Position numbers and translations under genes: made by a program. A model generated the notes under the pieces. That model did no database searches. It saw only the letters and a list, made by a program, of their open reading frames with translations, and was not told the DNA's origin. From Actinomycetes bacterium (GTDB lineage Bacteria; Auribacterota; JAJCYG01): DNA of 64,000 bases. Positions 18,763-64,000 of this stretch are shown here, piece after piece. Within the stretch, counting starts at the first letter, position 1. Every line of letters starts with the position of its first letter. Location: the NCBI GenBank assembly GCA_029263055.1, contig JAJCYG010000065.1:11458-75457 (forward strand). The letters run 5' to 3'.

Positions 18763-18774
18763 TCAGCAATACTC

Positions 18775-19004: not shown

Positions 19005-19014
19005 GGTGTTTATT

Positions 19015-20045: not shown

Positions 20046-20064
20046 CGGAGCGTGGACAACTTAT

Positions 20065-28292: not shown

Positions 28293-28293
28293 G

Positions 28294-29355: not shown

Positions 29356-29384
29356 CATCGGTGCCTGACCCCGGCGTCAACGTT
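29348..29384. repeat. Hairpin (AACGTTGACATCGG ... CCGGCGTCAACGTT) overlapping the GT4 stop codon. It contains the 15-mer GGTGCCTGACCCCGG (29360-29374).
   Basis: The 15-mer is identical to that at 14077-14091. A related GCCTGACCCCCGG motif occurs on the opposite strand at 4049-4062. Confidence 0.5.
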
Positions 29385-29395
29385 GAAAAGAGAGT

Positions 29396-31329: not shown

Positions 31330-31333
31330 AACA

Positions 31334-35395: not shown

Positions 35396-35416
35396 AGGGA
35401 TAAGGTATCAAAAAAA

Positions 35417-37339: not shown

Positions 37340-37367
37340 ACTGGTTGTAAATAAAGAGGATGGGAGT

Positions 37368-44702: not shown

Positions 44703-44703
44703 T

Positions 44704-47622: not shown

Positions 47623-47632
47623 AGGTCTTAAG

Positions 47633-48802
47633 ATGAAAACAGAATCACCGGTTCGAGAAAAATTTTTACCTGTGTCGTTACCTCAGATTGATCAAGAAGA
47701 GATTGATGAAGTGGTTGATTCCATGAAGTCGGGCTGGATTACTACCGGCCCTAAAGTCATGAAGTTTGAAGAAAAGTTTCAAGACTATTTTAATGTTCCT
47801 CATGCGGTTGCGTTGAATTCAGGAACAGCTGCGTTGCATATTTCTTATTTGACAGCAGGTATTGGGCCTGGGGATGAAGTGATCACCACTCCAATGACTT
47901 TTGCCGCAACAGTGAGCATGATCATGCTAGCAGGAGCTAAGCCTGTTTTAGTTGATATTGATTCAGCCACACTGAATCTTGATCCAAACTTAATTGAAAA
48001 AGCAATCACTCTTAAAACCAAAGCGATCGTGCCTGTTCATTTTGGGGGATTGCCATGTGACATGGATGCAATTAACGCTATTGCTAAAAAACATAATTTA
48101 AAAGTGATTGAAGATGCTGCCCATGCAGTTGGTTCGGAATATAAAGGAAAAAAGATAGGACAAATCAGCCCCTTTACCTGTTTTAGTTTTCATCCTATGA
48201 AAAATTTAACCACTGCTGAAGGGGGAATGGTGATTGCTCACTCAGAAGAAGATGCTGAGCAGCTTCGTTTACTTCGTTTCCATGGGATTGATAAAGATGC
48301 TTGGAAACGTTATGAGAAAAAAGGTTCGGCTCGTTATGGTGTGCACCAACTTGGTTTTAAATACAATATGCTTGATCTGCAAGCCGCAATTGGTTTGCAT
48401 CAATTAGATAAGCTGGCTCAATTTAATCATCGCCGTGCTGAGTTGGCTCAACTTTATTTAGGAGTGCTAAGTGATGTAGAAAATATCATCTTACCTCCGA
48501 TCAGTCCGGCTGATTCTGTGCATACATGGCATCTTTTTCCTGTTCAATTTGACATAGATAAAATAGGGAAGAGTCGCGAAGTGATTATGGATGAATTAAA
48601 AGCTGAGAATATTGGGACAGGGGTTCATTACGAAGCCATTCATTTGCATCCTTACTTTGGTGAAGCGTTAAAGTATGAACGAGGAGCCTTTCCAAAAGCA
48701 GAATTTATGTCTGACCGTGTGTTATCACTTCCTTTATTTCCGAAAATGACCAATCAAGATGTTGCTGATGTGGTTGCAGCCATCAAAAAGGTTCTAGGCT
48801 AA
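47633..48802 (+). CDS. DegT/ArnB-like PLP-dependent sugar aminotransferase (UDP-4-keto-sugar aminotransferase)
   Basis: FLPVSLPQIDQEEIDEV...SGWITTGPK matches the ArnB/DegT N-terminus, and the PLP-Lys region is SFHPMKNLTTAEGG. The start was moved to 47633. Confidence 0.85.
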   Translation: MKTESPVREKFLPVSLPQIDQEEIDEVVDSMKSGWITTGPKVMKFEEKFQDYFNVPHAVALNSGTAALHISYLTAGIGPGDEVITTPMTFAATVSMIMLAGAKPVLVDIDSATLNLDPNLIEKAITLKTKAIVPVHFGGLPCDMDAINAIAKKHNLKVIEDAAHAVGSEYKGKKIGQISPFTCFSFHPMKNLTTAEGGMVIAHSEEDAEQLRLLRFHGIDKDAWKRYEKKGSARYGVHQLGFKYNMLDLQAAIGLHQLDKLAQFNHRRAELAQLYLGVLSDVENIILPPISPADSVHTWHLFPVQFDIDKIGKSREVIMDELKAENIGTGVHYEAIHLHPYFGEALKYERGAFPKAEFMSDRVLSLPLFPKMTNQDVADVVAAIKKVLG

Positions 48803-50704
48803 ATGTGCGGACTTTCCGGGGTTTTTTTTGAAGACCCAACCCAACAGATTGAAGAAGTAGCTCTCATTGCCATGCGCGATGTCATGCAATTGCGTGGACC
48901 AGATGAAGCCGGTCTTTTTCGCGAGCCAGGGATAGGTCTGGGGCATCGTCGTCTTTCTGTGATTGATTTGGCTCAAGGGCATCAGCCGATGACCAATGAG
49001 AATGAATCTGTTTGGCTTGTCTATAATGGAGAAGTCTACAACTTTTCCAAACTCCGCTCTCAACTTCAAGGCAAAGGCTATTCTTTTAAAACTAACTCTG
49101 ACACGGAAGTGATTCTACGTGCCTATGAAGCTTATGGTGCGGATTGTGTGCAGCATTTTAATGGGATGTTTGCGTTTGCGATTTACGATAAAAAAGATCG
49201 CTCGCTCTTTATTGCCCGAGACCGCTTGGGAATCAAACCTCTTTATTACACGCATCAAAAAGGAATGTTTGCATTTGCTTCTTCTTTAAAAGCATTATTG
49301 AAGCATGCTGATGTTCCTCTTGAAATTGATAAAGAAGCACTGAATGAATACCTTCTTTTTGAATATGTGCCAGCCCCTCTTTCTATGGTTAAAAATGTGT
49401 TTAAGCTTTTACCGGGTCATCGCGCTCTGTTTAAAGATGGGAAATTAAAGATTGATAAGTATTGGGACTTAAATTATCAGAAGAAAGAGACTAAATCAGT
49501 TCCTGAGTTGTGTGAAGAGCTTAAAGACTTACTCCAGGCATCTGTTAAGCGTCGTCTTATTAGCGATGTGCCGCTCGGTGTTTTTTTGAGTGGTGGCATT
49601 GATTCGAGCGCGATTTTAAGTAGCATGACTGATTTAGGCCACGCCCCTTTAAAAACATTTTCTATTGGGTTTAAGGAAACCTCTTTTAATGAACTAAGCT
49701 ATGCTAGAAAAGTGGCGCAGTATTTTTCAACGGATCACAATGAAATGATGGTGACCCCGCAATCTTTGATTGATCTCTTTCCAAAGGTTTTAGAAGGGAT
49801 TGATGATCCAATAGGAGATCCTTCAGCCGTGCCGACTTATTTGGTTTCTCAATTAGCTCGTCAAAATGTCACAGTCTGTTTGTCTGGAGATGGAGGGGAT
49901 GAACTCTTTGCTGGTTATCCAACTTATCAAGCCTTAAAAATATGGCAGCTTTATTCAAAATTGCCAAAATCAATTCAAAAAGGGATTGCTTTAGGAGTGG
50001 CTGCGCTTCCAACCTCTTTTAGTGATATTAGCTTAGATTATAAATTAAAGAAATTTATGGAAGGAATGCCTTATCCGATTGAACAAGCTAATTTTTTATG
50101 GAAAGGGGCATTCCGTCCTGAAGAAAAAGAACGGCTGCTTTCACCTGAGTATTCTTTAACTCAAGATGGGTACAAAAACTACCAATCCTTAGAACCTTAC
50201 TTAAAGGGGTATCAAGGAAAGGGGCTTTTAGATAAACTATTGTTTCTAGATACCCATGTTTATATGCAAGATGACATTTTGGTTAAAGTCGATCGAATGA
50301 GTATGGCTAATTCATTAGAGGTGCGGGTTCCTCTTTTGGATCATACGATTGCTGAGTTTGCGGCTCGACTACCTGAGAATCTGAAGTTAAAAGGATTAAC
50401 CTCTAAGTTTCTTTTGAAAAAGACAATGGAGGGGAGTCTGCCTAAAGAGATTATCCACCGAAAGAAAAAGGGATTTGGAATTCCTTTTGCGGTTTGGGTG
50501 GCTGAGGCTCTGCTTAAAAACTTTGTGCTAGATTTTTTTGATGAAAAAAAGATTAATGAAGAAGGTTTCTTTAGGTTTGAAGAGATCAAACGCATTTTAG
50601 ATGACCACTTTGGCCAAAAACGAGACAATCGTAAATTGATTTGGACGTTGCTTGTTTTTATTGCTTGGTATCGCGAAGTGCTATCCATTAAAACAAATAG
50701 TTAA
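48803..50704 (+). CDS. Asparagine synthase (glutamine-hydrolysing) family amidotransferase
   Basis: The MCGLSG N-terminal Cys nucleophile and the SGGIDSS PP-loop identify the family. Confidence 0.85.
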   Translation: MCGLSGVFFEDPTQQIEEVALIAMRDVMQLRGPDEAGLFREPGIGLGHRRLSVIDLAQGHQPMTNENESVWLVYNGEVYNFSKLRSQLQGKGYSFKTNSDTEVILRAYEAYGADCVQHFNGMFAFAIYDKKDRSLFIARDRLGIKPLYYTHQKGMFAFASSLKALLKHADVPLEIDKEALNEYLLFEYVPAPLSMVKNVFKLLPGHRALFKDGKLKIDKYWDLNYQKKETKSVPELCEELKDLLQASVKRRLISDVPLGVFLSGGIDSSAILSSMTDLGHAPLKTFSIGFKETSFNELSYARKVAQYFSTDHNEMMVTPQSLIDLFPKVLEGIDDPIGDPSAVPTYLVSQLARQNVTVCLSGDGGDELFAGYPTYQALKIWQLYSKLPKSIQKGIALGVAALPTSFSDISLDYKLKKFMEGMPYPIEQANFLWKGAFRPEEKERLLSPEYSLTQDGYKNYQSLEPYLKGYQGKGLLDKLLFLDTHVYMQDDILVKVDRMSMANSLEVRVPLLDHTIAEFAARLPENLKLKGLTSKFLLKKTMEGSLPKEIIHRKKKGFGIPFAVWVAEALLKNFVLDFFDEKKINEEGFFRFEEIKRILDDHFGQKRDNRKLIWTLLVFIAWYREVLSIKTNS

Positions 50705-50714
50705 GAGGGCGGAT

Positions 50715-51326
50715 ATGTCTGAAGGACATGGCGAACATGACGAGTGGTTTTTTAAATACCCTTCGATCTATCGCTTTTTAAGAACCATTGTCAATCTTGG
50801 GCGATTCACTCAGCCTGTAAAAGAATACCTTCGAGCGACCCCTGAGGAGTCAGTGATTGATGTGGGGTGTGGAGTGGGAGACTTTTCAACAGTGGTTCCG
50901 GGTTCTTACGAGGGCTATGACTTGAATGAACGTTTTATTCAATATGCTCAGAAGAAATTTGGCAATGGGAACAAATCTTTTCATTTCAAGGACGTGTTGG
51001 CTTTACCTGAAACTCAACTTTATGACAAAGGGGTTGTTGTTAATATCATGCATCACTTCACTGATGAAGAACTGAAAATTTTATTGGCTCGCCTCAGAAA
51101 GTTAGTCACAAACTATTTTGTGATTGTGGATGCGGATTGGAACTCTTCTAATCGTTTTCAACGTTGGTTGCTCAATAAAGATCAGGGGAGTCATTTTCGT
51201 GATCGAAAAGATTTGCAAGCACTCTTGTCTCAATATTTTGATTTAGAAGACTTTTCTGTCTTTGAAACACGGTCAAAGTCTGTCTCTTTATTTCGATGCA
51301 TAGCGAAACCTAAACATGAAAATTAA
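50715..51326 (+). CDS. Class I SAM-dependent methyltransferase
   Basis: Motif I is VIDVGCGVGDFS. The start was moved to the ATG at 50715, which has an SD upstream. Confidence 0.55.
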   Translation: MSEGHGEHDEWFFKYPSIYRFLRTIVNLGRFTQPVKEYLRATPEESVIDVGCGVGDFSTVVPGSYEGYDLNERFIQYAQKKFGNGNKSFHFKDVLALPETQLYDKGVVVNIMHHFTDEELKILLARLRKLVTNYFVIVDADWNSSNRFQRWLLNKDQGSHFRDRKDLQALLSQYFDLEDFSVFETRSKSVSLFRCIAKPKHEN

Positions 51327-54300
51327 AGCTGAAAACTATCATTATATTCTTATCTTTTTTTTAGGTTTGACACCCCTTTTGTGGTTTGAGCCTGAGTATT
51401 TGATCAAACAGATTGATTTTGATCTTCCTTTAACTTTAGAGCGATTTAAAGCAACTTTTTTCTCTATGTGGGATTATCGGAATGGGGCAGGTCTGCCGCG
51501 TAGTTTGCATATGCCTGCTTTTATGTTTTTTCTTCCTCAAGCAGCCATGGGGCTTTTAGGGTTTTCGCTTGAAACCATCCAACGTTTTTTCTTTTGTTTT
51601 TGGTTTATGCTTCCTGGTTTTGCTTTTTACTATTTAATGAAGAGTTTGCTTCCTGAAAACAGTTTGGGAAATTATGCAGGACGGTTGGTTGCGGTTAGTT
51701 TTTATATGTTTAACCTTTATTTAGAACCGATTTGGATTGGTTTTAATATGGCTAACTTATCTTCTTATGTGGCTGTTCCCTTTGCATTAGGAGTTTTGAT
51801 TAAAAGCCTGCCTCAAAAAAGCTCTATCTATTTAACGGCATTTAAAGTTGCTTTAATTTTTACTCTGTTTCCAGCCATGGCAACCAACCCTTCTATGACT
51901 CTTATAGCAGCTGTTCCCTTTGTTGTTTTAGTGATTAAGTATCTTTTTGATGAAAAATTCAAATTAGCTTCGATTGGCTATATTATCGGTCTGCTCACTT
52001 TGACAGTCACTTTGTTAGGGCTTTTTAACCTTTATTGGATTTGGCCTGAGGTGAAAAAATTATTTGAAGCGAATATGGTTTTAACTTCTTCGGGTGTGAT
52101 GGGAGGGAGTCTTTCTGAGGATGTCTTTTTTGTGACAGATTGGCTAAAAGGGATTAGTTCGCGTACAAGTATTCCTGCTGTGATTAAAATGCAAGGGGAT
52201 TGGCCTTGGTATCAAGGGTACCGGGATTATGTGTCCACCTACTGGGGAAATCCTCTCTGGATTATTTTAGCTTGGTTTCCTTTTGCTCTTTCTGTCTTTG
52301 CTCTATGGAAAGCCAAACACCAATACAAATGGTTTTTTGGCGGGATGTTGATCGTGGCTCTTATATTAAGTACAGGGTTGCATCCTCCTTTTGGAATATT
52401 GTTTAAATTCTTATTAGAAAACGTGCCGCTCTTTTGGACGATTCGTAGCCCTTGGTATAAGTTTACCTTTTTAACTTGTCTGGGCTATGGTGTGTTAATT
52501 GGATTAGGTTCTCAAATCATTTTTAATGCGTTATCAACAAGAAAAACTAAGTGGCTTAATACACGTTACATTGCCATATTATTAATTTTTATTGCTGTAA
52601 GTCCTACTTATGCATTTCCGTTAGTTAAAGGAAAACATTTCAGACGTCCTGGTCCAGAACAAGGCTATCCCAATCATTTTAAACTTCCTTCTCATGCTAA
52701 AAAAGCAGCAGATTGGTTTAATCAGCAAAAAGAAGGAGGACGTATTCTAGACCTTCCTAGTCGTGGGATTACATACAATGAGTGGGGTTATGAAGGGTTT
52801 CTTCCTTTAATTGGTTATTTCACGCACTGGCCTTTAATGGTCGATAATCATCCACTCCATATTCCGTATCAAGGGGCTTGGGGATCTTCATGGATGTACA
52901 TGCAAAAACTGACACGGAATGCTTTTGAAAGAGGGTTGACCCCTTATGTGTCCAACTTAATGAGATTATTGCGCATTCGATATATTTTACATGAGCAAGA
53001 TTTTAAGTATCCAGTCCTTCCTTTTCCTACATCTGTTAAAGAAATTAATTCAAAGGTAGACTCTATGGTTGGAGTGGAACCAGCTAAAACATTTGAAGAT
53101 AAGTGGAGGGTCTGGGAATTAGAGAATTTGGTTCCAGAAGTCTATTCTATTGATAAGGTCTCTTTAGTGAATGGAAGTATTGATTCTTTTGTTCCATTGT
53201 CTGTTCGGATGAATGAAGAAGAACCTGGTTATGTGCTTTTGCCTGAAATAGGGAGTGAGACGTTTGAGACCTTGATTGCCGAGAAAACGATTGGTGAGGT
53301 GATTAGTTTTGAAGAGTCTCTTATGGATTGGGCTATTGAAAGTCTGAATCCTATTTATTTGCATCGTATCACGGTAAAAAATTCTGAAGAGTGGATGGTT
53401 TCTAAGACTAAAAAGTTTCTTCTTTCAAAGTCTGATGATTATTTGATCTTTGCTAAAAAGTTAGTCGCGAATCGAGAAATTAATTTAAGATTGGGTGTTG
53501 ATTTTACTCCTTATCCTCAGACAACAAAAATACATTGGAATTTAAATCTATTTCAACATTCGATTAAAGAGATTAAAAAATCAGATTTTCTTCCTGAGAA
53601 CGTTCAAATGGTTGCTTTAAAATCACTCGTGATTTTATTTGGAATCCAATACCAAGACGTCTCTTTTCATCTAGTGAAAAAAGCAGCCAATATTTTCTTA
53701 GATAAGAATAAGCAGGGAATTTGGAATCAAGCTTGTCTGGTAATTGATGGAAAAAGTGGATTGAATATAGACCAAGATGTACATCAACTTTCTCAAAAAT
53801 ACGAATCTAAAAAATGGGAGTTTTTGGGAACTCGATTTTTTGAAGAGGGAAGTCACCGGTTGTTTGCTCAAGCTGTTTTAAACAGGCGTTCGGTTTGGGA
53901 GTTTTATGTGGTGCCTAAACAACATTTTATGCAACGTTTTGAACAGGTCTTGAGTCTTTTTAAAGACAAGAGTGTGGGGCAGTCCTACCTTTTATCCTCT
54001 ACATCTAACTGGACTTCAGTAAGTGATTTAGAAAGGAAAAGTTATGTGATTACAGATGTTGAAGGATTGGAGGCCGAGTCAGATATTTATAACCGTACTT
54101 TTGGTTATTCTATTTTTAATAAAGAGTTTGAGTGTTCTGCTTCTGGGTCATATTCAATCATTGTAAAAAATGACTTTGATAAGCCTATAAAAAAATCTTT
54201 AGCTTTTAATGTTATTAGTCTTCAGAAGGGGCCGAAAACATTTGATGTTCAGTTTAATGGGAAAAAGATAAGGCAAATTATTGTTGATCCGATGCAAAAC

Positions 54301-55068
54301 TTTGCCATCTTTCTTAAGAATTTAGAGTTTAAACCAGGAAAGAATAGGGTTTCTCTTTCATTTTATGCCGGTGCTATTCCATTAGGAGAGCTTTTGGGTA
54401 ATGAGGAGCCTCGAGAGGTTCAGTTTGGTGTTCGAAATATTAGAGTGGGTGATTTGACTTTTAGGGAAAAATTTGTGATTCCTTCGGAAAGAGCCTTTAC
54501 TGTGAAATTATTTCCCTTTTTAGGAAAGAACCAAAATAAAAAAGCGTTTCAAGCCGCGAAACATATCTCTTCTGTTGTGATTGATGATCGAGAGTTGTTG
54601 TTGGAGGATGTTTTGGATGGAGAGAAAGGGATGTTTCTTCAAACCAAAGAGCCAATCTTATTAAAAGAGGGGACTCATTTTATTGGGTTTTCAAAGCAAA
54701 TGGACCCCGATTATTTTATTTTGTTACAGAGTGTTGTTAAACCTAAACCCTATGAGTCTAAGTTACAGTTTAAAAGGCTGAATCCAACTCGCATTGAGGC
54801 CCATCTCAACTTAGATCTCGATCAGATTCTTGTTTTTTCTGAAGCATTTGATGGAAAATGGCGTGCTTCTTCAAAAGAGAAAGAGTTTTTTCAGCATTTT
54901 AAGATCAATGGGTATGCTAATGGTTATCTTATCCCTGCTTCTAGTGGTAGAGAGATTACCTTAGAGTATTTTCCTCAAAGAGCTTTCCGTTTTGGGTTGT
55001 CTGTTTCTATACTTTCATTTTTATTGCTTTCACTAACAGCGTTATGGATTAGAAGGTCAAAAAAATAA
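51316..55068 (+). CDS. Large polytopic membrane protein, AftD/DUF3367-like GT-C family glycosyltransferase candidate (paralog 1 of 3)
   Basis: The N-terminal ~450 aa has many TM helices. Its conserved N-terminal block (LLWF...D..LP.T..R....F..W; P.F.F.LPQA..GLLG.S....QR..F..W) resembles the DUF3367 N-terminus. A large extracytoplasmic domain and a C-terminal TM anchor follow. Confidence 0.5.
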   Translation: MKIKAENYHYILIFFLGLTPLLWFEPEYLIKQIDFDLPLTLERFKATFFSMWDYRNGAGLPRSLHMPAFMFFLPQAAMGLLGFSLETIQRFFFCFWFMLPGFAFYYLMKSLLPENSLGNYAGRLVAVSFYMFNLYLEPIWIGFNMANLSSYVAVPFALGVLIKSLPQKSSIYLTAFKVALIFTLFPAMATNPSMTLIAAVPFVVLVIKYLFDEKFKLASIGYIIGLLTLTVTLLGLFNLYWIWPEVKKLFEANMVLTSSGVMGGSLSEDVFFVTDWLKGISSRTSIPAVIKMQGDWPWYQGYRDYVSTYWGNPLWIILAWFPFALSVFALWKAKHQYKWFFGGMLIVALILSTGLHPPFGILFKFLLENVPLFWTIRSPWYKFTFLTCLGYGVLIGLGSQIIFNALSTRKTKWLNTRYIAILLIFIAVSPTYAFPLVKGKHFRRPGPEQGYPNHFKLPSHAKKAADWFNQQKEGGRILDLPSRGITYNEWGYEGFLPLIGYFTHWPLMVDNHPLHIPYQGAWGSSWMYMQKLTRNAFERGLTPYVSNLMRLLRIRYILHEQDFKYPVLPFPTSVKEINSKVDSMVGVEPAKTFEDKWRVWELENLVPEVYSIDKVSLVNGSIDSFVPLSVRMNEEEPGYVLLPEIGSETFETLIAEKTIGEVISFEESLMDWAIESLNPIYLHRITVKNSEEWMVSKTKKFLLSKSDDYLIFAKKLVANREINLRLGVDFTPYPQTTKIHWNLNLFQHSIKEIKKSDFLPENVQMVALKSLVILFGIQYQDVSFHLVKKAANIFLDKNKQGIWNQACLVIDGKSGLNIDQDVHQLSQKYESKKWEFLGTRFFEEGSHRLFAQAVLNRRSVWEFYVVPKQHFMQRFEQVLSLFKDKSVGQSYLLSSTSNWTSVSDLERKSYVITDVEGLEAESDIYNRTFGYSIFNKEFECSASGSYSIIVKNDFDKPIKKSLAFNVISLQKGPKTFDVQFNGKKIRQIIVDPMQNFAIFLKNLEFKPGKNRVSLSFYAGAIPLGELLGNEEPREVQFGVRNIRVGDLTFREKFVIPSERAFTVKLFPFLGKNQNKKAFQAAKHISSVVIDDRELLLEDVLDGEKGMFLQTKEPILLKEGTHFIGFSKQMDPDYFILLQSVVKPKPYESKLQFKRLNPTRIEAHLNLDLDQILVFSEAFDGKWRASSKEKEFFQHFKINGYANGYLIPASSGREITLEYFPQRAFRFGLSVSILSFLLLSLTALWIRRSKK

Positions 55069-55069
55069 G

Positions 55070-58000
55070 ATGAAAAACGAATCAAAGTGGTCCTCTTTAT
55101 TTGATCTGAGTTTGATTTTTCTTTTTGGACTCTTGCCTTTAACTTGGTTTGTAGCAAACCATTTTATTCTTTCAGTTGATTCAAATCTTCCATTTACATT
55201 TGAGCGTTGGATTAACGAAGTCTTTTTTAGTTGGGACACGCACCTTCGAGCAGGGTGGTCGCCTCGGATGATTGAATCGACGCATTTCTTTTTCTTTGTG
55301 CAGTGGTTTTTTCAGTTTTTAGGGCTTGATTTATTAGGCGCACAACGAGCTGTTTTTGTTTTTTGGTTTATGTTGCCTGGATTTACTCAATACTTTTTTC
55401 TTCGATATCTTTTTCGAGACATGCCTCCTGTCGCCAAGCGACTAGCCTGTTTAGCAGGGGTGATGTTTTATATGTTTAATCTCTATCTAGAGCCGATTTG
55501 GTTAGGATTGAATGTGAGTAATTTGTTGGGATATGCGTTTCTGCCTTTATTACTTCGGATTTGGGTTCAAGTTTTAGAAGAACGTCGTTCCCCTGTGTTG
55601 TACGGCTTTTTATTTGCTTTGGTCTCTATCATGGCCTCAGGAATTGCCACAAATCCTGCCAATGTCTTTGTTTGTTCTATTCCTTTTTTTATTTTTGCTG
55701 CGATTGCTTTAGTTAAAGGCTTTAAAACAAAGGGTGGGGTGATTCATCTTATTTTATTCCTCTTTTTTACTCTGTTGTTTTCTCTGTTGTTTAATGCTTA
55801 TTGGATATTAACGGAATGGCAAAAAGTTTTTGTGACTTCTTTTGATTCAACAAAAGCAGCTGGTGAGGGCTTTATTGTTGAAGCATGGTTAGAAGGGGTC
55901 TCTAGGTACACGAGTTTTACTAATGTGATTCGTCTGTTAGGGAGTTGGACTTGGTTTGCTTCTCCTCGGGCATACAATACCTTGATTTTAACCAATCCAA
56001 TTTTTGTCATTTTTAGTTGGTTGGTTCCTGTCTTTGGTTTAATTGGACTGTTCTGTAAGACTCGTTATCGTTCTTTGTTTGGGGTCGTGCTTGTTTTAGG
56101 CATCATTCTCTCTATGGGAATCCATTTTCCTTTTAAACATGTTTATATGTGGATGGTGGAGCATGTCCCATTCTTTTGGTTGGTAAGAAGTCCTTGGTAT
56201 AAATTTATGATCTTAACTTGTTTGGGCTATTCATATTTTTTTGGAGTGGCTGCGGCTAAAATTTATCAGTGGGGAATGACGCCAAGTCGCAATCCTAAAA
56301 GGCGACGGCGTTTGACTTTTGCTGTTGTCTTTTTAGTGATTTTTCTTTCACCTATTTATGCGTTTCCTGTTTCTTTAGGAAAAATGTTTTTAAAACCAGA
56401 AGAGTCTAGTTATACAAATCATTTTCAAGTTCCTGAGTATGTTTATCAAACGAGCGATTATCTGAATAAAAAACCTGGGAATAATCGTATTTGGTCTCTG
56501 CCTGGAAAAGGTTTCTTCATGAATAACTGGGGCTTCTCTGGTTTTTCACCTTTTTTACCGTATGAGGTTTCCAAACCGATTCTTTACACAGATCACAACT
56601 TATCGATCCCTATTTCAGAGCAATGGCTCTCAGCTATTTCTCATCCCTTTCACATTATTCAGAATAGCTTTGAAAAGCAACTCACCCCTAATTTGTACCG
56701 AGTCTTAGGTCTTTTTAATGTAGATACACTTGTGACTGAAAATGATTTTAAATTCGCAGCATTGCCAGTTCCTTATTCTAAGAAAGAAATGAGTGACTCG
56801 GTTGAATTGCTTTGGGGAGTGGATAAAGAAAAATCATTTGGAGAATGGGATGTTTATCAATTGGCTCAACCTCAGCCTCTGATTTATAAAACTCAATCTG
56901 TTAATTTTGTTGAAGATCACATCGATGCACTGGTTCCTCTTTCAAATACAAACCAGTTAAATCGTTCTGCTTCATTTTTTGCTGAAGATTTGTCTGATAA
57001 GCAAAGAAACCTTCTTTTTCAAGACCAGGAAGTGAAGCACTTGGTTTTAAATAATCGATCCTGGTTTGATTTGGCTGTTGATTTGATGGAGCCTATTGAA
57101 AAAGTTCGCCTCTCTTTTGATAAAAAAGAGATTCCAGCCATTGAAATTAATGTGTCTGAAACAGGCTTTTATTATTTCTATGCGACTGCAGGTCGATCTA
57201 TAGGCTGGACGCGGCCTCGGCCTTTAGTCGATAAGCAGGAACTGGCTCAGACCCTTCCTGTGCAGTGGAGTCCTAATCTATTAGAAAAAGAGAATTGGCT
57301 TTCTGTAAACCAAATTCAAATTAAGCCAGTTTTATTTCAAGATCGTCCTAAAAAAGAGATGAATCAAGCGATCAAATGGGAAATGGTGGGGCAGCTTTAC
57401 TTGGAAGAGGGAAAACAGGAGCTTCGAGTAGAAGGATGGCAGCCAGACAAAGGGAATGTGACTGTTGCGGTTGTGCCTAAAGAAGAGGCTCAAGTCAAGC
57501 TGAGTCGCGTGCAAGAGCTCTATAAGAGTTCAACACTTTCTGTTTCTCAGTTCTTATCAACAGATTCTGCTTGGAGGCATGGGGGATGGGCACAAACCGA
57601 TCCTGGATTAGTGTCTCCTGATCCTGCTGTTAAATGGAAGCTAGCTGGCGTTTTTGAAAAATTGTTTGAGTTTCAAGGTTCTTCTCAGTGGCATCAATTG
57701 AGGCATGATGATATTGCGCTTGAGATTGAGAACAATCAGAAAGAATTGAAGCAGACTCGATTGGCTTTTAAGGTACTTTCCATTCAACCGACTCAAAGAG
57801 AAATTTATGTTTTTTTAAATGGAGAGCGGATTCAAAAGCTTAACGTTGAACCGATGGAAGAGTTAGGGGTTTCTGTTTTATTACAGCTAAATCCAGGTTT
57901 GAATAAAGTGCATTTTCAAACAAATGGATCGCCTGAGCCAATCAGTAAATTCTATAAAAATGATGATGAGCGTAGAGTGATTATGCTGGCAAAACAAATT

Positions 58001-58654
58001 GAGATAGGGCACCTTTCTTTTGTTTCGGATCTTTACTTGCCTGAAAGAGAGTCTTTTGTGGTTCGAGTCTATCCTTTTCGAGTACAAAAAGAGAGGGATC
58101 CTGAATTTTCAGATTTAAATAGAACGTTGAAGATTAATAACAAAGCTCTTCCTTTAAAAATGACAAAAGGGGAGTTTGGAGCACCTTATTGGGAGTCTGC
58201 CCAGCTTCATTCTTTTTCTGGAAAAAGAGTAAAGATTGAGTTTAAAGAAAGAGAAGGAAATCGTTATTTTATTGAAGTTCTTTCGGGGCAACCTGCTTCC
58301 CTTGAGAATGAGTCCCTTGTTGAGTTTACTCGACTTAATCCAACTAAGATTGAAGGGAGCCTTCAAACCAACAAGCCTGAATGGTTTATCTTTAGTGAAT
58401 CGTTTGATCCTCGGTGGGTTCTTTTGATTAATGGAAAAGAGTTTTTGCCCATTAAAGTAAATAGCTATGCCAATGCTTATAAAATTCCTTCTACAAATGG
58501 AGAGGTTGTTTCATTTGAATTGGAGTTTGGGCCTCAGAAGTGGATGTGGCGAGGCATTCGAATCTCTTTAGCCAGCTTGGCAGGATCGACTTTATTTGTT
58601 TTGATCTTATTGCTTTTTAAACGCCACTATCGTAGAAAAAAGTACACTCAGTAG
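55070..58654 (+). CDS. AftD/DUF3367-like GT-C family membrane protein (paralog 2 of 3)
   Basis: Same architecture and N-terminal motifs as 51316-55068. Confidence 0.5.
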   Translation: MKNESKWSSLFDLSLIFLFGLLPLTWFVANHFILSVDSNLPFTFERWINEVFFSWDTHLRAGWSPRMIESTHFFFFVQWFFQFLGLDLLGAQRAVFVFWFMLPGFTQYFFLRYLFRDMPPVAKRLACLAGVMFYMFNLYLEPIWLGLNVSNLLGYAFLPLLLRIWVQVLEERRSPVLYGFLFALVSIMASGIATNPANVFVCSIPFFIFAAIALVKGFKTKGGVIHLILFLFFTLLFSLLFNAYWILTEWQKVFVTSFDSTKAAGEGFIVEAWLEGVSRYTSFTNVIRLLGSWTWFASPRAYNTLILTNPIFVIFSWLVPVFGLIGLFCKTRYRSLFGVVLVLGIILSMGIHFPFKHVYMWMVEHVPFFWLVRSPWYKFMILTCLGYSYFFGVAAAKIYQWGMTPSRNPKRRRRLTFAVVFLVIFLSPIYAFPVSLGKMFLKPEESSYTNHFQVPEYVYQTSDYLNKKPGNNRIWSLPGKGFFMNNWGFSGFSPFLPYEVSKPILYTDHNLSIPISEQWLSAISHPFHIIQNSFEKQLTPNLYRVLGLFNVDTLVTENDFKFAALPVPYSKKEMSDSVELLWGVDKEKSFGEWDVYQLAQPQPLIYKTQSVNFVEDHIDALVPLSNTNQLNRSASFFAEDLSDKQRNLLFQDQEVKHLVLNNRSWFDLAVDLMEPIEKVRLSFDKKEIPAIEINVSETGFYYFYATAGRSIGWTRPRPLVDKQELAQTLPVQWSPNLLEKENWLSVNQIQIKPVLFQDRPKKEMNQAIKWEMVGQLYLEEGKQELRVEGWQPDKGNVTVAVVPKEEAQVKLSRVQELYKSSTLSVSQFLSTDSAWRHGGWAQTDPGLVSPDPAVKWKLAGVFEKLFEFQGSSQWHQLRHDDIALEIENNQKELKQTRLAFKVLSIQPTQREIYVFLNGERIQKLNVEPMEELGVSVLLQLNPGLNKVHFQTNGSPEPISKFYKNDDERRVIMLAKQIEIGHLSFVSDLYLPERESFVVRVYPFRVQKERDPEFSDLNRTLKINNKALPLKMTKGEFGAPYWESAQLHSFSGKRVKIEFKEREGNRYFIEVLSGQPASLENESLVEFTRLNPTKIEGSLQTNKPEWFIFSESFDPRWVLLINGKEFLPIKVNSYANAYKIPSTNGEVVSFELEFGPQKWMWRGIRISLASLAGSTLFVLILLLFKRHYRRKKYTQ

Positions 58655-61651
58655 GCTGGTAATCAATCCAATAAGTGTTAGTAGCCAGAAGAGGTCAAAC
58701 CACTTTTGCGGCGTGAAGTCGAGCAAGACCGTAAAGCTTCCTGTCTGATCAATGTAATAACCGTTTGCAAATCCATTTGCCTTACCGTGAATATTAAAAT
58801 AATGATTTTCCCCATCTATGATTGTTGAAGCTTTCCAATAAGGGTGGTAAGACTCGGAAAAGATAAGCACAAATGGTTTTTCTGTTTTGACTTTAATTTG
58901 ATGTTGAGTTGAAGAAATCATTTCGTGGCTTAAATCGGTCTTTTCTTCTTTAGTTGAAAATGAAGCTTTAGCTGTTCGGCTCAATTCGATAAAGTAGTTA
59001 TCTTTTCCTGATTGTTCTACGAGTAATTGTTTGTTTTTATCGTTAAGATTAAGTGTTGCTTTAAAGTGGTCTACCTTTGAGTTGTTTGCCTTCTTAAGAG
59101 ATATTTTATTCTGATCTAACCATGCAAAAGGTGAGGCGCTTCCTTGTGGGGGATAGATTTTAAGTTGCACACTCTCTTTTTTAGGTTGTTCTAGTGGGAC
59201 TTTAAAAGAGATTGTGCCGTATTTAAATGAGTTTTTGTTTAATCCAAAGCTTGTCCCGAAACCTCCCCATCCAGAATGTTGAAATGGAGAATAAAAATGG
59301 ATTTTATTTTTACCTGGTTTTAACTCAATTTTTTTAACAAGAAGAGAGGTTATTTGATCCGCTTTTAGTTGAACAATTCTAAGGTTTTTTCCATCTTGTT
59401 GAACGTAAAATGAACGATCATTTTCTAGACTAAACACATCAAAAGAAAAGTTAATAAAGATTGTTTCTTGGGTGGGATTATTAAAGTAGATGCCATCTGT
59501 ATTCCCATCCCACCAGGTCCAGGTAATGTTGTCTTCGATTTTTAAAGGAACATGGTTTAAAAACTGGATGTCCATTTTGATTTTTTGGTGTAGTTTTTTG
59601 TTATTAGGGCTTTCTTCAATAATCACAGCTTCCAGATTTTCGCTGTTTACGACAAGGCGGTTGTCATGCGAAAAAACAGAATCGATTTTTGTGGCTTCAG
59701 CAAGTTTAAAACTAGAATCAGGGTTTAAGAAGAGTGCCTCATGTTCTTGGGGATGATTTTGAAAGGTCCACCAAGTGAATAAGGAAGTGTCTCCATTTAA
59801 GAGCAATGTATTTTTAGGGGAGGCAGCATAAATAAATGGAGTGATGCTACTTGTTTCATAAAATTGCCATTCACCAAATAACTGGCTTTGCTTGATCCCT
59901 TTTTGTTTATTTAGTTTGCTTTCAATAAATTTAGGATCATCTCCCAAAACATAGCCAAGCCCCTTGTAGAAGTCATACCGAATATCTTTTTCATGTAAAA
60001 GGTACTTGATTTGAAATAAGCTTAAAAGCTCTTCAGCGTAAGGAGTGGTTTCATTATAAATTTGATAGCGTATGGCTTCTAACAGTTCCTTGCCTTGGTT
60101 AATCGGGCCTTGTGCTGTGAGTGTGTAGTGGTGATGGTGAGGGAATGCCAAATTCTTAGAAGAAAACTCATTTGAAAAAGAACCATAGTTTGTCCCCCCC
60201 CAATTATAAATATAGGGGTTGTCACCAGGCAGAGTGAAGTAACGAAAAAAGCCTGGCTGATCATCTAGCCACTTTGATGCTTTAAAGACATAGTCAGGGA
60301 TTTCAAACCGATTTGGAGAAAGAAACTTTCGAGTCTCTTTAGCATGAAAAAACTTTCCTGTTGTGATTGGAAAGGCATAAACCAAATTGCTTAAACAAAG
60401 GAGAGTGATTAAAGTAATGCCGATTGCTTTTCTCTTAGACGTTATTTTATAAATTAAATGACACGCTGCGCCAAACAATACTGCGTAACCTAGGCAGACC
60501 CAGAAATAAAATTTTAAATAAGGACTTCTGAAGATCCAAAACAGAGGCATATTTTCAGTTAACCAAATATAGAGAGAACCAAATGGAGCATGGGCACCCA
60601 TTGAAAGAAAAATACCGGTGAGGGTTAAAAAGATAAATGTTTTCCGAAATGAGATTGATTTGTTCCAGCAACCGATTAAAGCCATTAAAGGGACTATCCA
60701 GCTCAGGCAGTAGAGAAATGTTTTAGGGGCATAAGAAGATGAGTAAGAACGATACGGATCCACACATCCTTGATACCAAGTCCAATCACCTAAGGTGCGA
60801 ATCACATTTGAGAAACTAGTATAAATACTCATTCCTTTTAACCAGCCGATTAGTTCTGCTGGAGTTGCGATTTCACCCCCCATTTTTAAAATTGCATTTC
60901 TATAGATTGCCATGGCTTGAGGAAAGAGCCAGTAGATATTGGCACAAAGCCAAATGCAAAGAAGCGCCAAGGTTTTAAATGTTAAAAGTTTAAACAGACC
61001 AAAGTTTTTCCATGCTTTGCCGCGAATAAAAAAGGAGATAAAGACAATAATGATTGGAGCAACCGACGCGCCAAATTCAGAAGGATTATTTCCCATCCCT
61101 GAAGCGAAAAAAGAGACTAAGAAATAAAGGGCCGCTCCAAGAGAAAACTTAATTTCACCTCGAAAGATTTGAATGCTGAGTGCGAGTAAAATAGGAACCA
61201 GTGCATAGGCTGTGATAAGTGGGGGCTTAAACCCAATCCAAACATTTTCAAGCCAGAGGTTAAAAAGGTAAAAGCTCAGTCCGCCTAAGCGAAAGATGAG
61301 AGAGCCGGGTCCTTTGTAAAGCGTGCGTAGCAAATAAATAATCCCAAAACCAGCCAAGGTGTACCAAAAGACAAACATGATTTTTTGAGTGGAGAGAAGT
61401 GAGAGTCCCCATTCTTGCAATAAGGCAGGTAAAAGCATCATGGGCATCAAGCAGTTATCAAAAATCAGTTCGCTTCCAGTGTTCCATCCATGATGCCAAA
61501 CTGAGAAGAGGGCCTTCCATTTGTCTAAGGTATAAGGCAAGCGGACATCTTCTGCTTTTAAAATCTCATTTCCCTCAAACCACAATAGGGGAACAAGTCC
61601 GCAAAGCAAGACAACTAAGAAGTCAATATTTCGAATAAAACGGTTCTTCAT
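58607..61651 (-). CDS. AftD/DUF3367-like GT-C family membrane protein (paralog 3 of 3), on the opposite strand
   Basis: Same architecture. Its 3' end overlaps the 3' end of 55070-58654 by 48 nt, so both C-terminal TM anchors are encoded in the same DNA. Confidence 0.5.
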   Translation of the reverse strand: MKNRFIRNIDFLVVLLCGLVPLLWFEGNEILKAEDVRLPYTLDKWKALFSVWHHGWNTGSELIFDNCLMPMMLLPALLQEWGLSLLSTQKIMFVFWYTLAGFGIIYLLRTLYKGPGSLIFRLGGLSFYLFNLWLENVWIGFKPPLITAYALVPILLALSIQIFRGEIKFSLGAALYFLVSFFASGMGNNPSEFGASVAPIIIVFISFFIRGKAWKNFGLFKLLTFKTLALLCIWLCANIYWLFPQAMAIYRNAILKMGGEIATPAELIGWLKGMSIYTSFSNVIRTLGDWTWYQGCVDPYRSYSSSYAPKTFLYCLSWIVPLMALIGCWNKSISFRKTFIFLTLTGIFLSMGAHAPFGSLYIWLTENMPLFWIFRSPYLKFYFWVCLGYAVLFGAACHLIYKITSKRKAIGITLITLLCLSNLVYAFPITTGKFFHAKETRKFLSPNRFEIPDYVFKASKWLDDQPGFFRYFTLPGDNPYIYNWGGTNYGSFSNEFSSKNLAFPHHHHYTLTAQGPINQGKELLEAIRYQIYNETTPYAEELLSLFQIKYLLHEKDIRYDFYKGLGYVLGDDPKFIESKLNKQKGIKQSQLFGEWQFYETSSITPFIYAASPKNTLLLNGDTSLFTWWTFQNHPQEHEALFLNPDSSFKLAEATKIDSVFSHDNRLVVNSENLEAVIIEESPNNKKLHQKIKMDIQFLNHVPLKIEDNITWTWWDGNTDGIYFNNPTQETIFINFSFDVFSLENDRSFYVQQDGKNLRIVQLKADQITSLLVKKIELKPGKNKIHFYSPFQHSGWGGFGTSFGLNKNSFKYGTISFKVPLEQPKKESVQLKIYPPQGSASPFAWLDQNKISLKKANNSKVDHFKATLNLNDKNKQLLVEQSGKDNYFIELSRTAKASFSTKEEKTDLSHEMISSTQHQIKVKTEKPFVLIFSESYHPYWKASTIIDGENHYFNIHGKANGFANGYYIDQTGSFTVLLDFTPQKWFDLFWLLTLIGLITSLLSVLFSTIVAFKKQ

Positions 61652-61867
61652 ATATATTTTTCAGAGTAATAATTGTGGATTAGGTCTTTGTTGCACATAG
61701 GGTCAGAGCCTTTGAACTTCTTCTACAAATGGCATATTCACTGTAACACGTTGAGTTTGGTAAAGATATCAAATAGCGTGTCAAAAAAGTAGCTAAATCA
61801 ATCCATTGACGGAGAGCCTGTTTTTTGGAAGACTATTAGGTCAAATCATTCATTTTAGAGGATTTAA

Positions 61868-63532
61868 ATGTATATATTAGGAATTACAGCCCCAATTTCA
61901 TGGAACAATGCCGCAGCTCTGATTCAAGATGGTAATGTCATCGCTGCTGCTGAAGAAGAGCGATTTAACCGGGTTAAGCATGCGCCTCGGACACCTCCGA
62001 TTGAAGCGATTAAATTTTGCCTCGACTTTGCCAAAATTGATCTTTCTCAAGTTGATACGATTGCTGTTGGGTTTAAAAGTCCTTTAGCCTATCTTCCTAT
62101 TTCACAATGGACAGAACTTCGTCGAGGATCGGTTCCTAATGCGATTGCTCAATTTGGAGCTGTTGCAGAATATGCGATTTTACTTCAAAAATTAAAGCGT
62201 CAGTTGGCCCAAATTTATGGTGAAATTCCTCCTACATTAAAGTGGGAATTTATTCCTCATCATATTGCACATGCAGCTAGTGCTTATTATGTTTCTGGTT
62301 TTGATAAAGCCAACATTATTAGTTTGGATGGAAATGGAGAGGATGATTGCGGTTTGTTAGCTTATGGTCAACCTTCAGGAATTGATCCGATTCATAAACT
62401 TTCATTGTCTGATTCGATTGGCGAGTTATTTGGAACGTGTACTGATATTTTGGGTTTTCGCAAACATAGTGATGAAGGCAAGACAATGGGATTGGCTGCG
62501 TTTGGAAGTCCTCAATATTTAAAAGATGTGGTTAACTTTAAGAATGGTGCGTTTACTTTAAAGAAGGGGTATGCAAACGAGTTGTGGAAGGAGTTTGGTC
62601 CGCGTCGTCCTCAAGAAGAAGCATTGAATGAGCGCCATAAAGATTTAGCGGCTTCTGTTCAGAGTGTGACAGAGCAAGTGGGGGTTCATTTAGCTCAAGG
62701 TTTAAAGAACAAAACAAAATCAGCTAACTTTTGTTTGGCAGGTGGGGTTGCTTTAAACTGTGATATGAATGCTCAGATTTTATTAAAAGGTGTGGCTGAA
62801 AATATTTTTGTTCAACCGGCTGCTCATGATGCAGGAACAGCTTTAGGCGCTGCTTATGAAGTGTATGTGCGTCGTGGAGGTCGTTCTAATTTTGTGATGG
62901 ACCATGCTTCTTGGGGGCCTGAGTATACTAATGAAGAGATTGAGCATGTTTTGCGTGAATCTAAATTAGAATACACGCATCATAGAAATATTGAAGAAGT
63001 GGCTGCTGAGAGTTTGAAAAATGCCAAGATTTTAGGTTGGTTTCAAGGGCGTATGGAATGGGGGCCACGTGCATTAGGGAACCGTTCTATTTTAGCCAAT
63101 CCGGCGATTCCTCAAATGAAAGAAAAAGTAAACCGCGAAGTCAAACACCGAGAGAACTGGCGTCCGTTTGCACCTGCGATTTTAGCTGAAGAAGTGAAGA
63201 ATTATGCGGATGGGGCTTACCCTTCTCCTTTTATGTTGCTCTTCTTTCATGTTTTTAAAGAGAAGCAAAAAGATTTAGCTGCTGGGATCCATATTGATGG
63301 AACAGCACGTGTGCAATCTGTAACTGAAAAAGCAAATCCTACTTTTTATCGTCTGCTTCAAGAAATGCAGAAGAAGACAGGGGTCCCTTCAGTAGTGAAT
63401 ACTTCTTTTAATGATCGTGGAGAACCGATTGTGATGAGTCCGCGGCATGCGGTGCGCACATTTTTTGCGACCGGGCTGGATGAACTCTTTATTGGTAATT
63501 ACCGCATTGTTAAACCTGCAAGTGCTAAGTAA
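61868..63532 (+). CDS. Carbamoyltransferase (NodU/CmcH family)
   Basis: MYILGI...NAAAALIQDG...AAEEERFNRVKH matches the carbamoyltransferase N-terminal Kae1-like domain, and the ~550 aa length fits. Confidence 0.75.
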   Translation: MYILGITAPISWNNAAALIQDGNVIAAAEEERFNRVKHAPRTPPIEAIKFCLDFAKIDLSQVDTIAVGFKSPLAYLPISQWTELRRGSVPNAIAQFGAVAEYAILLQKLKRQLAQIYGEIPPTLKWEFIPHHIAHAASAYYVSGFDKANIISLDGNGEDDCGLLAYGQPSGIDPIHKLSLSDSIGELFGTCTDILGFRKHSDEGKTMGLAAFGSPQYLKDVVNFKNGAFTLKKGYANELWKEFGPRRPQEEALNERHKDLAASVQSVTEQVGVHLAQGLKNKTKSANFCLAGGVALNCDMNAQILLKGVAENIFVQPAAHDAGTALGAAYEVYVRRGGRSNFVMDHASWGPEYTNEEIEHVLRESKLEYTHHRNIEEVAAESLKNAKILGWFQGRMEWGPRALGNRSILANPAIPQMKEKVNREVKHRENWRPFAPAILAEEVKNYADGAYPSPFMLLFFHVFKEKQKDLAAGIHIDGTARVQSVTEKANPTFYRLLQEMQKKTGVPSVVNTSFNDRGEPIVMSPRHAVRTFFATGLDELFIGNYRIVKPASAK

Positions 63533-64000
63533 TGGGAGCGTCTGTTCCTGAATATTTTTTTGGAACAACTGATCCTGCTTTAAATCAAGCAATTTATTCT
63601 TCGTCTGCAAATGAAATCGAATCACTCTGTTCTAAGTATTTAAATAAACCTTTTAATGAATGTCGTTTGATTGATGTTGGTTCAGGCAATGGAGGCGTGG
63701 CAGAGCAGCTTGCAAAAAAAGCAGCTTCTGTTTGTGGATTGGAAGTGGTTCCAGCCCTTCACCAGCATGCGATTCAACGATTAAAAAAAGAGCCGCGAGC
63801 AAACTTAAATTTTACTTTAGGTAGTGTCTATGACATGCCTTATAAAGAAGAATTTGATTTGGCTGTTTTTTTAACGGCAATTGAACATATTAAAGAGCAT
63901 CATCTTGCCATTGAAAAGATTCTTCAATCACTCAAGCCTGGGGGGCTTTTATATTTAACCGCTCCAAATAAATTATGGCCAATTGAACAGCATTACAATC
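63532..64000 (+). CDS. Class I SAM-dependent methyltransferase, 3'-truncated by the window end
   Basis: An open frame runs from the ATG at 63532 (it overlaps the upstream stop as TAATG) to the window end. Motif I is IDVGSGNGGVAEQLA. This ORF is not in the supplied track because no stop occurs within the window. Confidence 0.5.
   Translation, partial: MGASVPEYFFGTTDPALNQAIYSSSANEIESLCSKYLNKPFNECRLIDVGSGNGGVAEQLAKKAASVCGLEVVPALHQHAIQRLKKEPRANLNFTLGSVYDMPYKEEFDLAVFLTAIEHIKEHHLAIEKILQSLKPGGLLYLTAPNKLWPIEQHYN

Follow-up and report, generated by a model that had tools for sequence, protein, structure and literature searches.

We describe three large membrane proteins that are encoded side by side in a 64,000-nt stretch of contig JAJCYG010000065.1 (assembly GCA_029263055.1, positions 11,458 to 75,457 of the forward strand). 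This whole stretch is called the window, and its numbering is used unless another contig is named. The genes of paralogue A (51316-55068) and paralogue B (55070-58654) lie on the plus strand and that of paralogue C (58607-61651) on the minus strand, and B and C share their last 48 nt tail to tail. The combined evidence makes it likely that these paralogues are GT-C glycosyltransferases of the AftD kind that diverged long ago, are probably all catalytically competent and belong to a glycan operon in which the coding overlap is tolerated.

A, B and C are old paralogues with a common architecture

According to the listing of open reading frames (ORFs), A, B and C comprise 1250, 1194 and 1014 amino acids (aa), respectively. 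B is the last gene of a plus-strand operon and ends with a TAG stop codon (58652-58654). C is inverted relative to its neighbours and ends with TAA, which appears as TTA on the plus strand (58607-58609). BLASTP connected all three proteins: A and B align over their full length with 29% identity (E 3e-157), B and C with 30% identity over the N-terminal ~620 aa and 25% over the C-terminal ~330 aa (E 5e-84), and A and C with an E-value of 1e-75. On the basis of these alignments, with identities of 29-30%, we regard A, B and C as real but old paralogues.

Hydropathy analysis revealed a single C-terminal hydrophobic segment in each protein, located at residues 1227-1245 in A, 1165-1183 in B and 987-1005 in C, the last one reaching F1011. 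The AlphaFold2 models of B and C finish in long helices at these ends (B 1154-1193, C 981-1013). A consists of an N-terminal domain with multiple transmembrane (TM) helices and a large periplasmic domain, together with its one C-terminal anchor (1227-1245).

The three proteins resemble the arabinofuranosyltransferase AftD

B matches the Pfam family PF11847 (GT-C_AftD, formerly DUF3367) with 43 bits at a cut-off of 26 (E 2e-11), and the same family was found in the orthologue of A from assembly GCA_040960375.1. A profile of the B orthologues matched the AftD structures weakly (E 4e-4), covering the TM domain and a short segment before the C-terminal anchor. Using the AlphaFold2 model of C (pLDDT 83.3, pTM 0.81), Foldseek returned the AftD entries 6wby, 6w98 and 6wbx as top matches (E 2e-20 to 2e-17), followed by STT3 with an E-value of 3.5e-6. 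AftD was the top structural match of B, too, and this match extends into the periplasmic domains; the following hits were STT3B, PglB, Pmt1/2/4, AftA, AglB, ALG12, AftB, DPY19 and ArnT. For the periplasmic part, the structural search listed many beta-sandwiches of the carbohydrate-binding module (CBM) families CBM35, CBM36, CBM6 and CBM22. Both a GT-C fold closest to AftD and periplasmic carbohydrate-binding modules after the TM domain were thus found. Together with the BLASTP results, the structural matches bear out an earlier note on this DNA, which had recognised three GT-C-like paralogues from the sequence alone.

An alignment of 26 sequences including A, B and C contains 16 invariant columns, and A has all 16 residues. 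An aspartate about 12 residues after TM1 (D37 in B, D35 in C) is invariant in 26/26 homologues. In GT-C enzymes the catalytic Asp sits after TM1 (Kelly et al., 2024; PMC11127046), and AftD carries an essential Asp, D41, in the equivalent place (bioRxiv 10.1101/2019.12.22.885152), whereby the equivalence is one of position after TM1 and not of residue-level structural superposition. Judged by sequence, none of A, B and C looks degenerate.

The likeness to AftD (PF11847; PDB 6W98, 6WBX, 6WBY) thus comprises the GT-C fold with ~11 N-terminal TM helices, the conserved Asp after TM1, a large periplasmic region of CBM-type beta-sandwiches and a membrane return at the C-terminus. There are also differences. 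AftD is a mycobacterial alpha-(1->3)-arabinofuranosyltransferase, to which A, B and C are only 10-16% identical, and with ~1400 aa it is longer than these proteins (1014-1250 aa). Furthermore, the host of AftD is actinobacterial, whereas that of A, B and C is tentatively placed, by its Rho protein, with Auribacterota-like members of the PVC group. We propose a topology in which the ~11 N-terminal TM helices would expose the catalytic Asp in the first outer loop and the large domain would be periplasmic. The last helix would serve as a stop-transfer anchor back to the cytoplasm, and the short basic tail behind it would fit the positive-inside rule.

Anatomy of the overlap between B and C

The convergent 48-nt overlap reported in the earlier note is exact. 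It spans 58607-58654 on both strands, corresponding to 16 codons in codon-aligned antisense, with the second codon positions of B and C opposite each other. Since stop codons fix both ends of a 3'-to-3' overlap, any uncertainty about the gene starts is irrelevant to it. Within the overlap B reads LLLFKRHYRRKKYTQ followed by its stop, which corresponds to the last four anchor residues (LLLF) and an 11-residue basic tail (KRHYRRKKYTQ). C reads LLSVLFSTIVAFKKQ followed by its stop, corresponding to its final 12 hydrophobic residues (LLSVLFSTIVAF) and KKQ. The statement of the earlier note that both strands of this DNA code for a hydrophobic anchor is thus only half right: it holds for the C end and for the LLLF of B, but the rest of the B part is basic tail.

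In the window and in two orthologous loci described below (L002 and L003), the hydrophobic residues of each strand face the basic or polar tail that its complement encodes. A per-codon table of these three loci showed that middle bases A or G in the B tail pair with T or C in the C helix, and that this pattern is conserved. The palindrome TTTAAA (58616-58621) is read as Phe-Lys on each strand; it forms the junction between anchor and basic tail in both proteins and is invariant in the three loci. In the genetic code, NAN codons (Lys, Asn, Gln, Tyr) are complementary to NTN codons (Phe, Leu, Ile, Val), and the Arg codons CGN and AGA are complementary to Ala, Thr and Ser codons. Because of this complementarity, a basic tail behind an anchor automatically yields, when the opposite strand is read, an acceptable terminus for a membrane helix, and the overlap is cheap, as the code itself pairs basic-tail codons with membrane-helix codons.

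The overlap recurs in orthologous loci

The window derives from a metagenome-assembled genome, and its contig of 96,924 bp was found in NCBI and Logan only. One could therefore suspect that the overlap is an artefact, in which a sequencing or assembly error near 58.6 kb (a frameshift or a lost stop) extends one of the two frames. We consider this highly improbable for the following reasons. Positions 54152-63551 (9.4 kb) are identical base for base to a Logan contig from run SRR15505515 (L001), which probably comes from the same reads and is thus independent in assembly, though not in sequencing. Moreover, the overlap recurs in orthologous loci, which were fetched via the closest homologues of B. 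Two of them contain A, B and C: L002 (DRR538838; 63% identity for B) with an overlap of 45 nt (13550-13594), and L003 (GCA_040960375.1; 62%) with one of 72 nt (13553-13624). The other two contain B and C, with B at 39% identity each; the genes overlap by 78 nt in L005 (SRR17165172; 13511-13588) and are separated by a 3-nt gap in L007 (JGI 3300022690; 10237-10239). The junction of L003 is the same in a Logan assembly of SRR25508635 (L004), and that of L005 is the same in L006, which stems from a different Sequence Read Archive run (SRR17165185). Altogether, the overlap is present in three of the four orthologous loci at 39-63% protein identity, and these loci come from different samples and assemblers. 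The C-termini of both proteins also share their architecture of anchor plus basic tail with orthologues and paralogues, and the C stop (TTA on the plus strand) does not vary between the window, L002 and L003. With independent assemblies and runs in agreement and the overlap retained by orthologues, an assembly or frameshift artefact was rejected.

The five junction distances (-3, 45, 48, 72 and 78 nt) are all multiples of three, and the relative reading frame of B and C has evidently been kept while protein identity fell to 39%. The earlier note had called for a check of the sequence quality at ~58.6 kb and for a comparison with orthologues, and had considered a mis-set stop. Independent assemblies are identical at the junction, the comparison yielded the overlaps of 45, 72 and 78 nt and the triad in L002 and L003, and a mis-set stop is excluded by the orthologous overlaps, the five in-frame junctions and the concordant assemblies. 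While the C stop is invariant in the window, L002 and L003, the B stop shifts between overlap codons 15, 16 and 24; a fixed C stop and a mobile B stop in these three close loci therefore indicate stop-codon drift. The short tail of C (FKKQ, FKNR, FKKS) and the basic tail of B are conserved in the same three loci. L005 shows a mirror arrangement, in which C has a hydrophilic extension of 30 residues that faces the B anchor. A length ranging from -3 to 78 nt and the different arrangement in L005 argue against the idea that the overlap constrains both C-termini, and a strong constraint of this kind is unlikely.

Convergent overlaps account for 7% of all prokaryotic overlaps, and long overlaps were considered possibly genuine in this orientation alone; some long ones are genuine, mostly with conservation restricted to close species (Palleja et al., 2008; PMC2478687). 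By the criteria of this study, B and C have the 3' extent of their orthologues and their overlap is present in other genomes, and like the overlaps described there it has ends fixed by stops and is conserved among relatives. Longer convergent overlaps are reported to favour a frameshifted phase (bioRxiv 10.1101/2025.11.07.687268). In contrast to reported longer examples, the B/C overlap is codon-aligned ('phase 0'), its partners are paralogous, and it covers the anchor/tail junction of both. It is conserved somewhat deeper than usual, yet within known behaviour.

The paralogy is ancient and the family is widespread

To collect relatives, one genome per species was scanned. Members of the family were found in Omnitrophota (L008, L009), Chloroflexota (L010-L012, L015, L016) and Nitrospinaceae (L013, L014), and also in Berkelbacteria (L018) and a Bathyarchaeia archaeon (L017). 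The loci hold three copies in Omnitrophota and Chloroflexota and two in Berkelbacteria, all on one strand, and these copies share the N-terminal motif and the C-terminal anchor with basic tail. The assumption of a very rare family, based on 25 word-indexed matches, was rejected: that number was a sensitivity limit, and with an exhaustive profile search the family grew to 5,610 cluster representatives at E<=1e-30 and to 20,545 at E<=1e-3.

In a neighbour-joining tree, which is crude and without support values, C and its orthologues cluster with one Omnitrophota and one Chloroflexota copy, and A is sister to all B orthologues. A fourth and more distant paralogue (P0011, P0014; 1111-1163 aa) is encoded elsewhere on the L005 and L002 contigs. 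The adjacent position and the one common architecture of A, B and C could also be read as a recent tandem expansion in this genome, as the earlier note had implied with a local gene-family expansion. However, this reading deserves next to no credence. The pairwise identity is only about 30%, separate orthologues of A, B and C exist in L002 and L003 (B at ~62-63%), loci with two or three copies occur in other phyla, and the tree groups C with copies from two of these phyla and leaves A outside all B orthologues. A recent tandem duplication was rejected on these grounds, and the expansion is ancient rather than recent. Judging from the distribution of the copies, either the paralogy predates these lineages or the genes moved among them as a set. 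Only the inverted position of C, from which the convergent junction follows, is specific to the window's clade. An inversion of C through flanking inverted repeats was rejected as well, with only imperfect and chance-like matches of 14-23 nt.

A, B and C lie in a putative glycan operon

Between 38456 and 58654, nearly all genes are on the plus strand and tightly packed. The operon is headed by a flippase of the MOP superfamily (38456-39754, plus strand), with weak matches to Polysacc_synt (5.7e-10), MurJ (2.1e-8) and MatE (3.2e-4). This protein could be the flippase for a lipid-linked donor, or equally a Wzx-type flippase for repeat units. Two GT2 glycosyltransferases and then a B12-binding radical SAM enzyme, all assigned by Pfam/NCBIfam, separate it from a 512-aa multi-TM protein (43164-44702, plus strand) without a Pfam or NCBIfam match. 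The latter has ~10 hydrophobic segments and a soluble tail of ~120 aa, and its gene is directly upstream of a UbiA gene across the window's clade. Together with a short-chain dehydrogenase/reductase (SDR), it also occurs in loci of Nitrospinaceae (L013, L014) and Chloroflexota (L015) at ~40% identity, and it may be another enzyme of lipid-linked sugars.

The UbiA gene (44641-45579, plus strand; 312 aa, no extra domain) encodes a polyprenyl-phosphate phosphoribosyltransferase of the UbiA family, a homologue of the mycobacterial decaprenyl-phosphate enzyme (DPPRS). It scores 285 bits against NCBIfam NF008977 (cut-off 234) and 217 bits against NF008978 (cut-off 207), and it matches the decaprenyl-phosphate phosphoribosyltransferase of PDB entry 8j8j with an E-value of 8.8e-38. 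The homologue was found at 77-81% identity in L002, L003, L005 and L007, so that the gene is part of the operon in 5/5 loci of the clade. By homology, its product is a candidate maker of a lipid-linked pentofuranose donor. 

Directly upstream of A follows a sugar-modifying block on the plus strand (45666-51326; Pfam/NCBIfam), which has the same order in L002, L003, L005 and L007. It starts directly after the UbiA gene with an SDR epimerase/dehydratase (45666-46643) and continues with a GNAT acyltransferase (46630-47622), a DegT aminotransferase (47573-48802), for which ArnB ranks first in NCBIfam but stays below the cut-off, an AsnB-like amidotransferase (48803-50704) and an S-adenosylmethionine methyltransferase (50652-51326). 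C is the only inverted gene of the locus. Divergent from it, a carbamoyltransferase of the NodU/CmcH type (Pfam PF02543, PF16861) is encoded at 61868-63532 on the plus strand. From this layout, the intergenic region of 216 bp (61652-61867) presumably contains the promoter of C, and no specific promoter was demonstrated within it.

Across the phyla sampled, the carbamoyltransferase accompanies AftD-like genes more constantly than any other neighbour, DPPRS included, sometimes together with AsnB or with the 512-aa protein and the SDR. Using tblastn on flanks of ~10 kb, we detected it in Omnitrophota (L008 8349-9998, L009 8292-9941), Chloroflexota (L010 20630-22276, L012 21602-23254) and Nitrospinaceae (L013 5922-7571, L014 8165-9814); the Berkelbacteria locus L018 gave no match. 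This recurrence hints at a conserved carbamoylated glycan. In L003, a minus-strand module at 16593-20341 is located between C and the carbamoyltransferase and encodes a 404-aa protein of unknown function, an MBOAT protein, a KAS-III-like protein and a small PP-binding carrier protein. Mycobacterial AftD binds an acyl carrier protein through a helix bundle that is missing in the AftD-like proteins, and Dlt-like glycan acylation seems to be the more likely role of this module.

A pentofuranose pathway is the leading hypothesis for the locus

The established route of extracytoplasmic pentofuranosylation combines a polyprenyl-phosphoribose synthase with a flippase, a GT-C that bears a carbohydrate-binding domain (CBD) and, optionally, an SDR epimerase, and arabinan synthesis in mycobacteria follows this principle, too (Kelly et al., 2024; PMC11127046). 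Because the operon holds UbiA, SDR and GT-C components of this pathway and a candidate flippase, a ribofuranose-derived lipid-linked donor is the leading hypothesis for the locus. As the final members of a cell-surface glycan operon, A, B and C would use sugars linked to polyprenyl phosphate, on the outside of the membrane. The donor would probably be a ribofuranose-derived pentose, made by the adjacent DPPRS-type UbiA protein and modified by the SDR, the aminotransferase and the acyltransferase. Each paralogue would form a different linkage on the growing glycan, comparable to EmbA/B/C and AftA-D in mycobacteria.

In comparison to the three-component system (PMC11127046), the locus shares the UbiA-type phosphoribosyltransferase, an SDR candidate and CBD-bearing GT-Cs, and the MOP-superfamily protein is a candidate for its flippase. 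That system uses a MATE-family flippase and a GT-C of family GT136, whereas three AftD-like GT-Cs of about twice the size are present here. Being closest to AftD, these three can count as no more than analogues of GT136. Furthermore, the UbiA protein of the window has no fused phosphoribose phosphatase (PRP) domain, and no such domain was recognised here. The additional genes for an aminotransferase, an acyltransferase, an amidotransferase, a methyltransferase and a carbamoyltransferase hint at a sugar with more extensive modification. A second parallel is provided by the mycobacterial arabinosyltransferases EmbC-EmbA-EmbB, which are likewise three large adjacent paralogous GT-Cs with periplasmic carbohydrate-binding domains and presumably share out the work on one polymer. 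A, B and C are more divergent among themselves (~30% identity), and the emb genes lie side by side in one direction without a tail-to-tail overlap. A dependence on lipid-linked pentofuranose made via a UbiA-family DPPRS would be common to both (PMC11127046).

Alternative donors and a possible regulatory role of the overlap

Several observations weigh against the interpretation of A, B and C as AftD-like enzymes of a pentofuranose pathway with a tolerated overlap. A and C gave no PF11847 match at E<=0.01, and a full-text search for DUF3367 retrieved a proteome annotation of Mycobacteroides abscessus only and thus no characterised non-actinobacterial member. AftD ends in a five-helix bundle (TM12-16) that binds acyl carrier protein, in contrast to the single C-terminal helix of A, B and C, which is also seen in family members from other phyla. 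The tree behind the proposed age is of the crude kind mentioned above. Among the scanned window ORFs, neither an epimerase of the DprE1/DprE2 type nor a phosphoribose phosphatase (HAD/PAP2) was recognised; the negative for the phosphatase is limited by three ORFs without any family match (43164-44702, 19015-19716 and 26679-27089). The SDR, DegT and GT2 proteins also fit an Arn-like amino-pentose route, with all matches below the curated cut-offs, and within the ~10-kb flanks examined DPPRS is linked to AftD-like genes in the window's clade only. Finally, the one relative frame in all five junctions is explained by shared ancestry, and selection could explain it, too.

Some of these points feed the alternative that A, B and C use another donor, such as an Arn-like polyprenyl-phosphate amino-pentose or a hexose, or act like oligosaccharyltransferases and move preassembled glycans onto protein or lipid. 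We regard this as unlikely, albeit with enough in its favour to be taken seriously: the DegT protein reaches 424 bits with ArnB (cut-off 631), the SDR matches UDP-4-keto-pentose/UDP-xylose synthase with 202 bits (cut-off 294), one GT2 protein weakly resembles ArnC, and the flanks of the loci from Omnitrophota, Chloroflexota and Nitrospinaceae contain no DPPRS gene. On the other hand, AftD is the top structural match of both B and C, for C with a margin of 14 orders of magnitude in the Foldseek E-value, and the DPPRS equivalog, with a score above its curated cut-off, is conserved in the operon of all five clade loci. In addition, an Arn-like branch would have alternative GT-C-like candidates in the window, namely a Dpy19-like protein, an 884-aa protein with F5/8 type C domains (both described below) and the 512-aa protein. 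The lipid-linked pentofuranose therefore stays the preferred donor for this locus. As the DPPRS linkage is limited to the clade, the pentofuranose donor is not an inference for the whole family, and DPPRS was rejected as a family-wide partner within the flanks examined.

With regard to the overlap, codons that create an antisense stop (TTA, CTA, TCA) make up 5.7% of the codons in the window ORFs, and 15 of 46 ORFs can be read in the codon-aligned antisense frame for 15 codons or more at their 3' end without meeting a stop. Therefore, an overlap of 16 codons is readily available once two genes abut. Its length is what chance permits in this situation and is statistically unremarkable; the unusual feature is that there is no intergenic spacer at all. 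The window contains a second convergent pair without spacer, pilT-like (2304-3362, plus strand) and sufT-like (3363-3950, minus strand) with a 0-nt gap, and two further convergent pairs whose gaps measure 250-300 nt; with its second spacer-free junction, this genome seems prone to packing genes tightly tail to tail. According to our proposal, gene C was inverted in the window's lineage, which would have placed B and C tail to tail without a spacer, and the overlap would be a tolerated and near-neutral result of stop-codon drift, that is, a by-product of tight gene packing. Its variable length points to this neutrality. No intrinsic terminator-like hairpin was found at the 58.6 kb junction, and weak terminator-like matches fall inside genes; transcription would end there by Rho-dependent or read-through termination. 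The missing hairpin and a spacer-free junction kept in one frame down to 39% protein identity are also what one would expect if the overlap were selected as a regulatory device, in which complementary mRNA tails or colliding polymerases couple or balance the expression of B and C. Such a device could matter if B and C were partners in a hetero-oligomer, and the analogous mycobacterial paralogues EmbA and EmbB do form a heterodimer. Nevertheless, selection for regulation is improbable: the length of the overlap varies, L007 has none, L005 uses a different sequence arrangement, and the co-directional paralogues of other phyla demonstrate that the convergent junction is dispensable for the family. 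Tolerance of a by-product remains the better account, also in comparison with the mutual antisense regulation raised in the earlier note.

Implications

Taken together, the gene content carries more weight than the overlap, because it points to a large uncharacterised AftD-like branch with thousands of cluster representatives in uncultured phyla, typically with two or three paralogues beside a carbamoyltransferase and, in this lineage, also beside a DPPRS-type enzyme. A carbamoylated, pentofuranose-based envelope polymer of a new kind, built outside the cytoplasm by a DPPRS-type enzyme and three specialised AftD-like GT-Cs for polymerisation or branching, in an uncultured Auribacterota-like bacterium of the PVC group and by extension in Omnitrophota, Chloroflexota, Nitrospinaceae and other phyla, is a speculative proposal that is more doubtful than probable. 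If it is true, arabinan-like chemistry would not be confined to Actinobacteria, and if the donor is a lipid-linked pentofuranose, glycan assembly of the mycobacterial style outside the cytoplasm would reach well beyond this group. The spacer-free junction in one frame might in addition couple the expression of B and C, which is a weaker add-on to the polymer proposal. The overlap itself is a cross-validated natural example of convergent coding with a simple explanation in the genetic code, and it may be useful for teaching and for the design of overlapping genes. The findings concern a known kind of protein and a known type of pathway in a lineage without a studied example. Current understanding is not overturned by them.

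Other features of the window

The window is chromosomal, as it contains tsaD, pilT, sufT, rho, prfA, murA, ffh, trmD, rplS, rnhB and nadA, and has a G+C content of ~39%. The nearest named relatives of its Rho protein are Candidatus Auribacterota/Aureabacteria (78-81%), followed by Chlamydiota and Omnitrophota; from Rho alone, the host is probably, and tentatively, an Auribacterota-like member of the PVC group. Structured RNAs and tRNAs were not detected in the window (Rfam 0 at gathering thresholds, ARAGORN 0 genes).

A minus-strand block of three genes (32741-38183) encodes an 884-aa protein (32741-35395), whose N-terminal domain is hydrophobic and which carries two F5/8 type C (discoidin) domains, a 640-aa multi-TM protein that weakly matches Dpy19 (a C-mannosyltransferase of the GT-C type) and a CsgG-like lipoprotein. 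This block may supply further components of extracytoplasmic glycosylation or secretion. A second glycan pathway is encoded on the plus strand at 24717-32443, comprising a Wzm/Wzt ABC transporter, whose Wzt carries a C-terminal carbohydrate-binding domain, three GT4 glycosyltransferases, an RmlD-like reductase and a second DegT aminotransferase; it is preceded by a 1149-aa TPR protein (21215-24664). Both the TPR protein and the 884-aa protein were considered as extra paralogues of A, B and C and rejected. Finally, a plus-strand gene at 4155-6038 encodes a 627-aa protein that represents an unusual fusion of an aldo/keto reductase (residues 24-344) with a chlorite-dismutase-like domain (residues 518-620).

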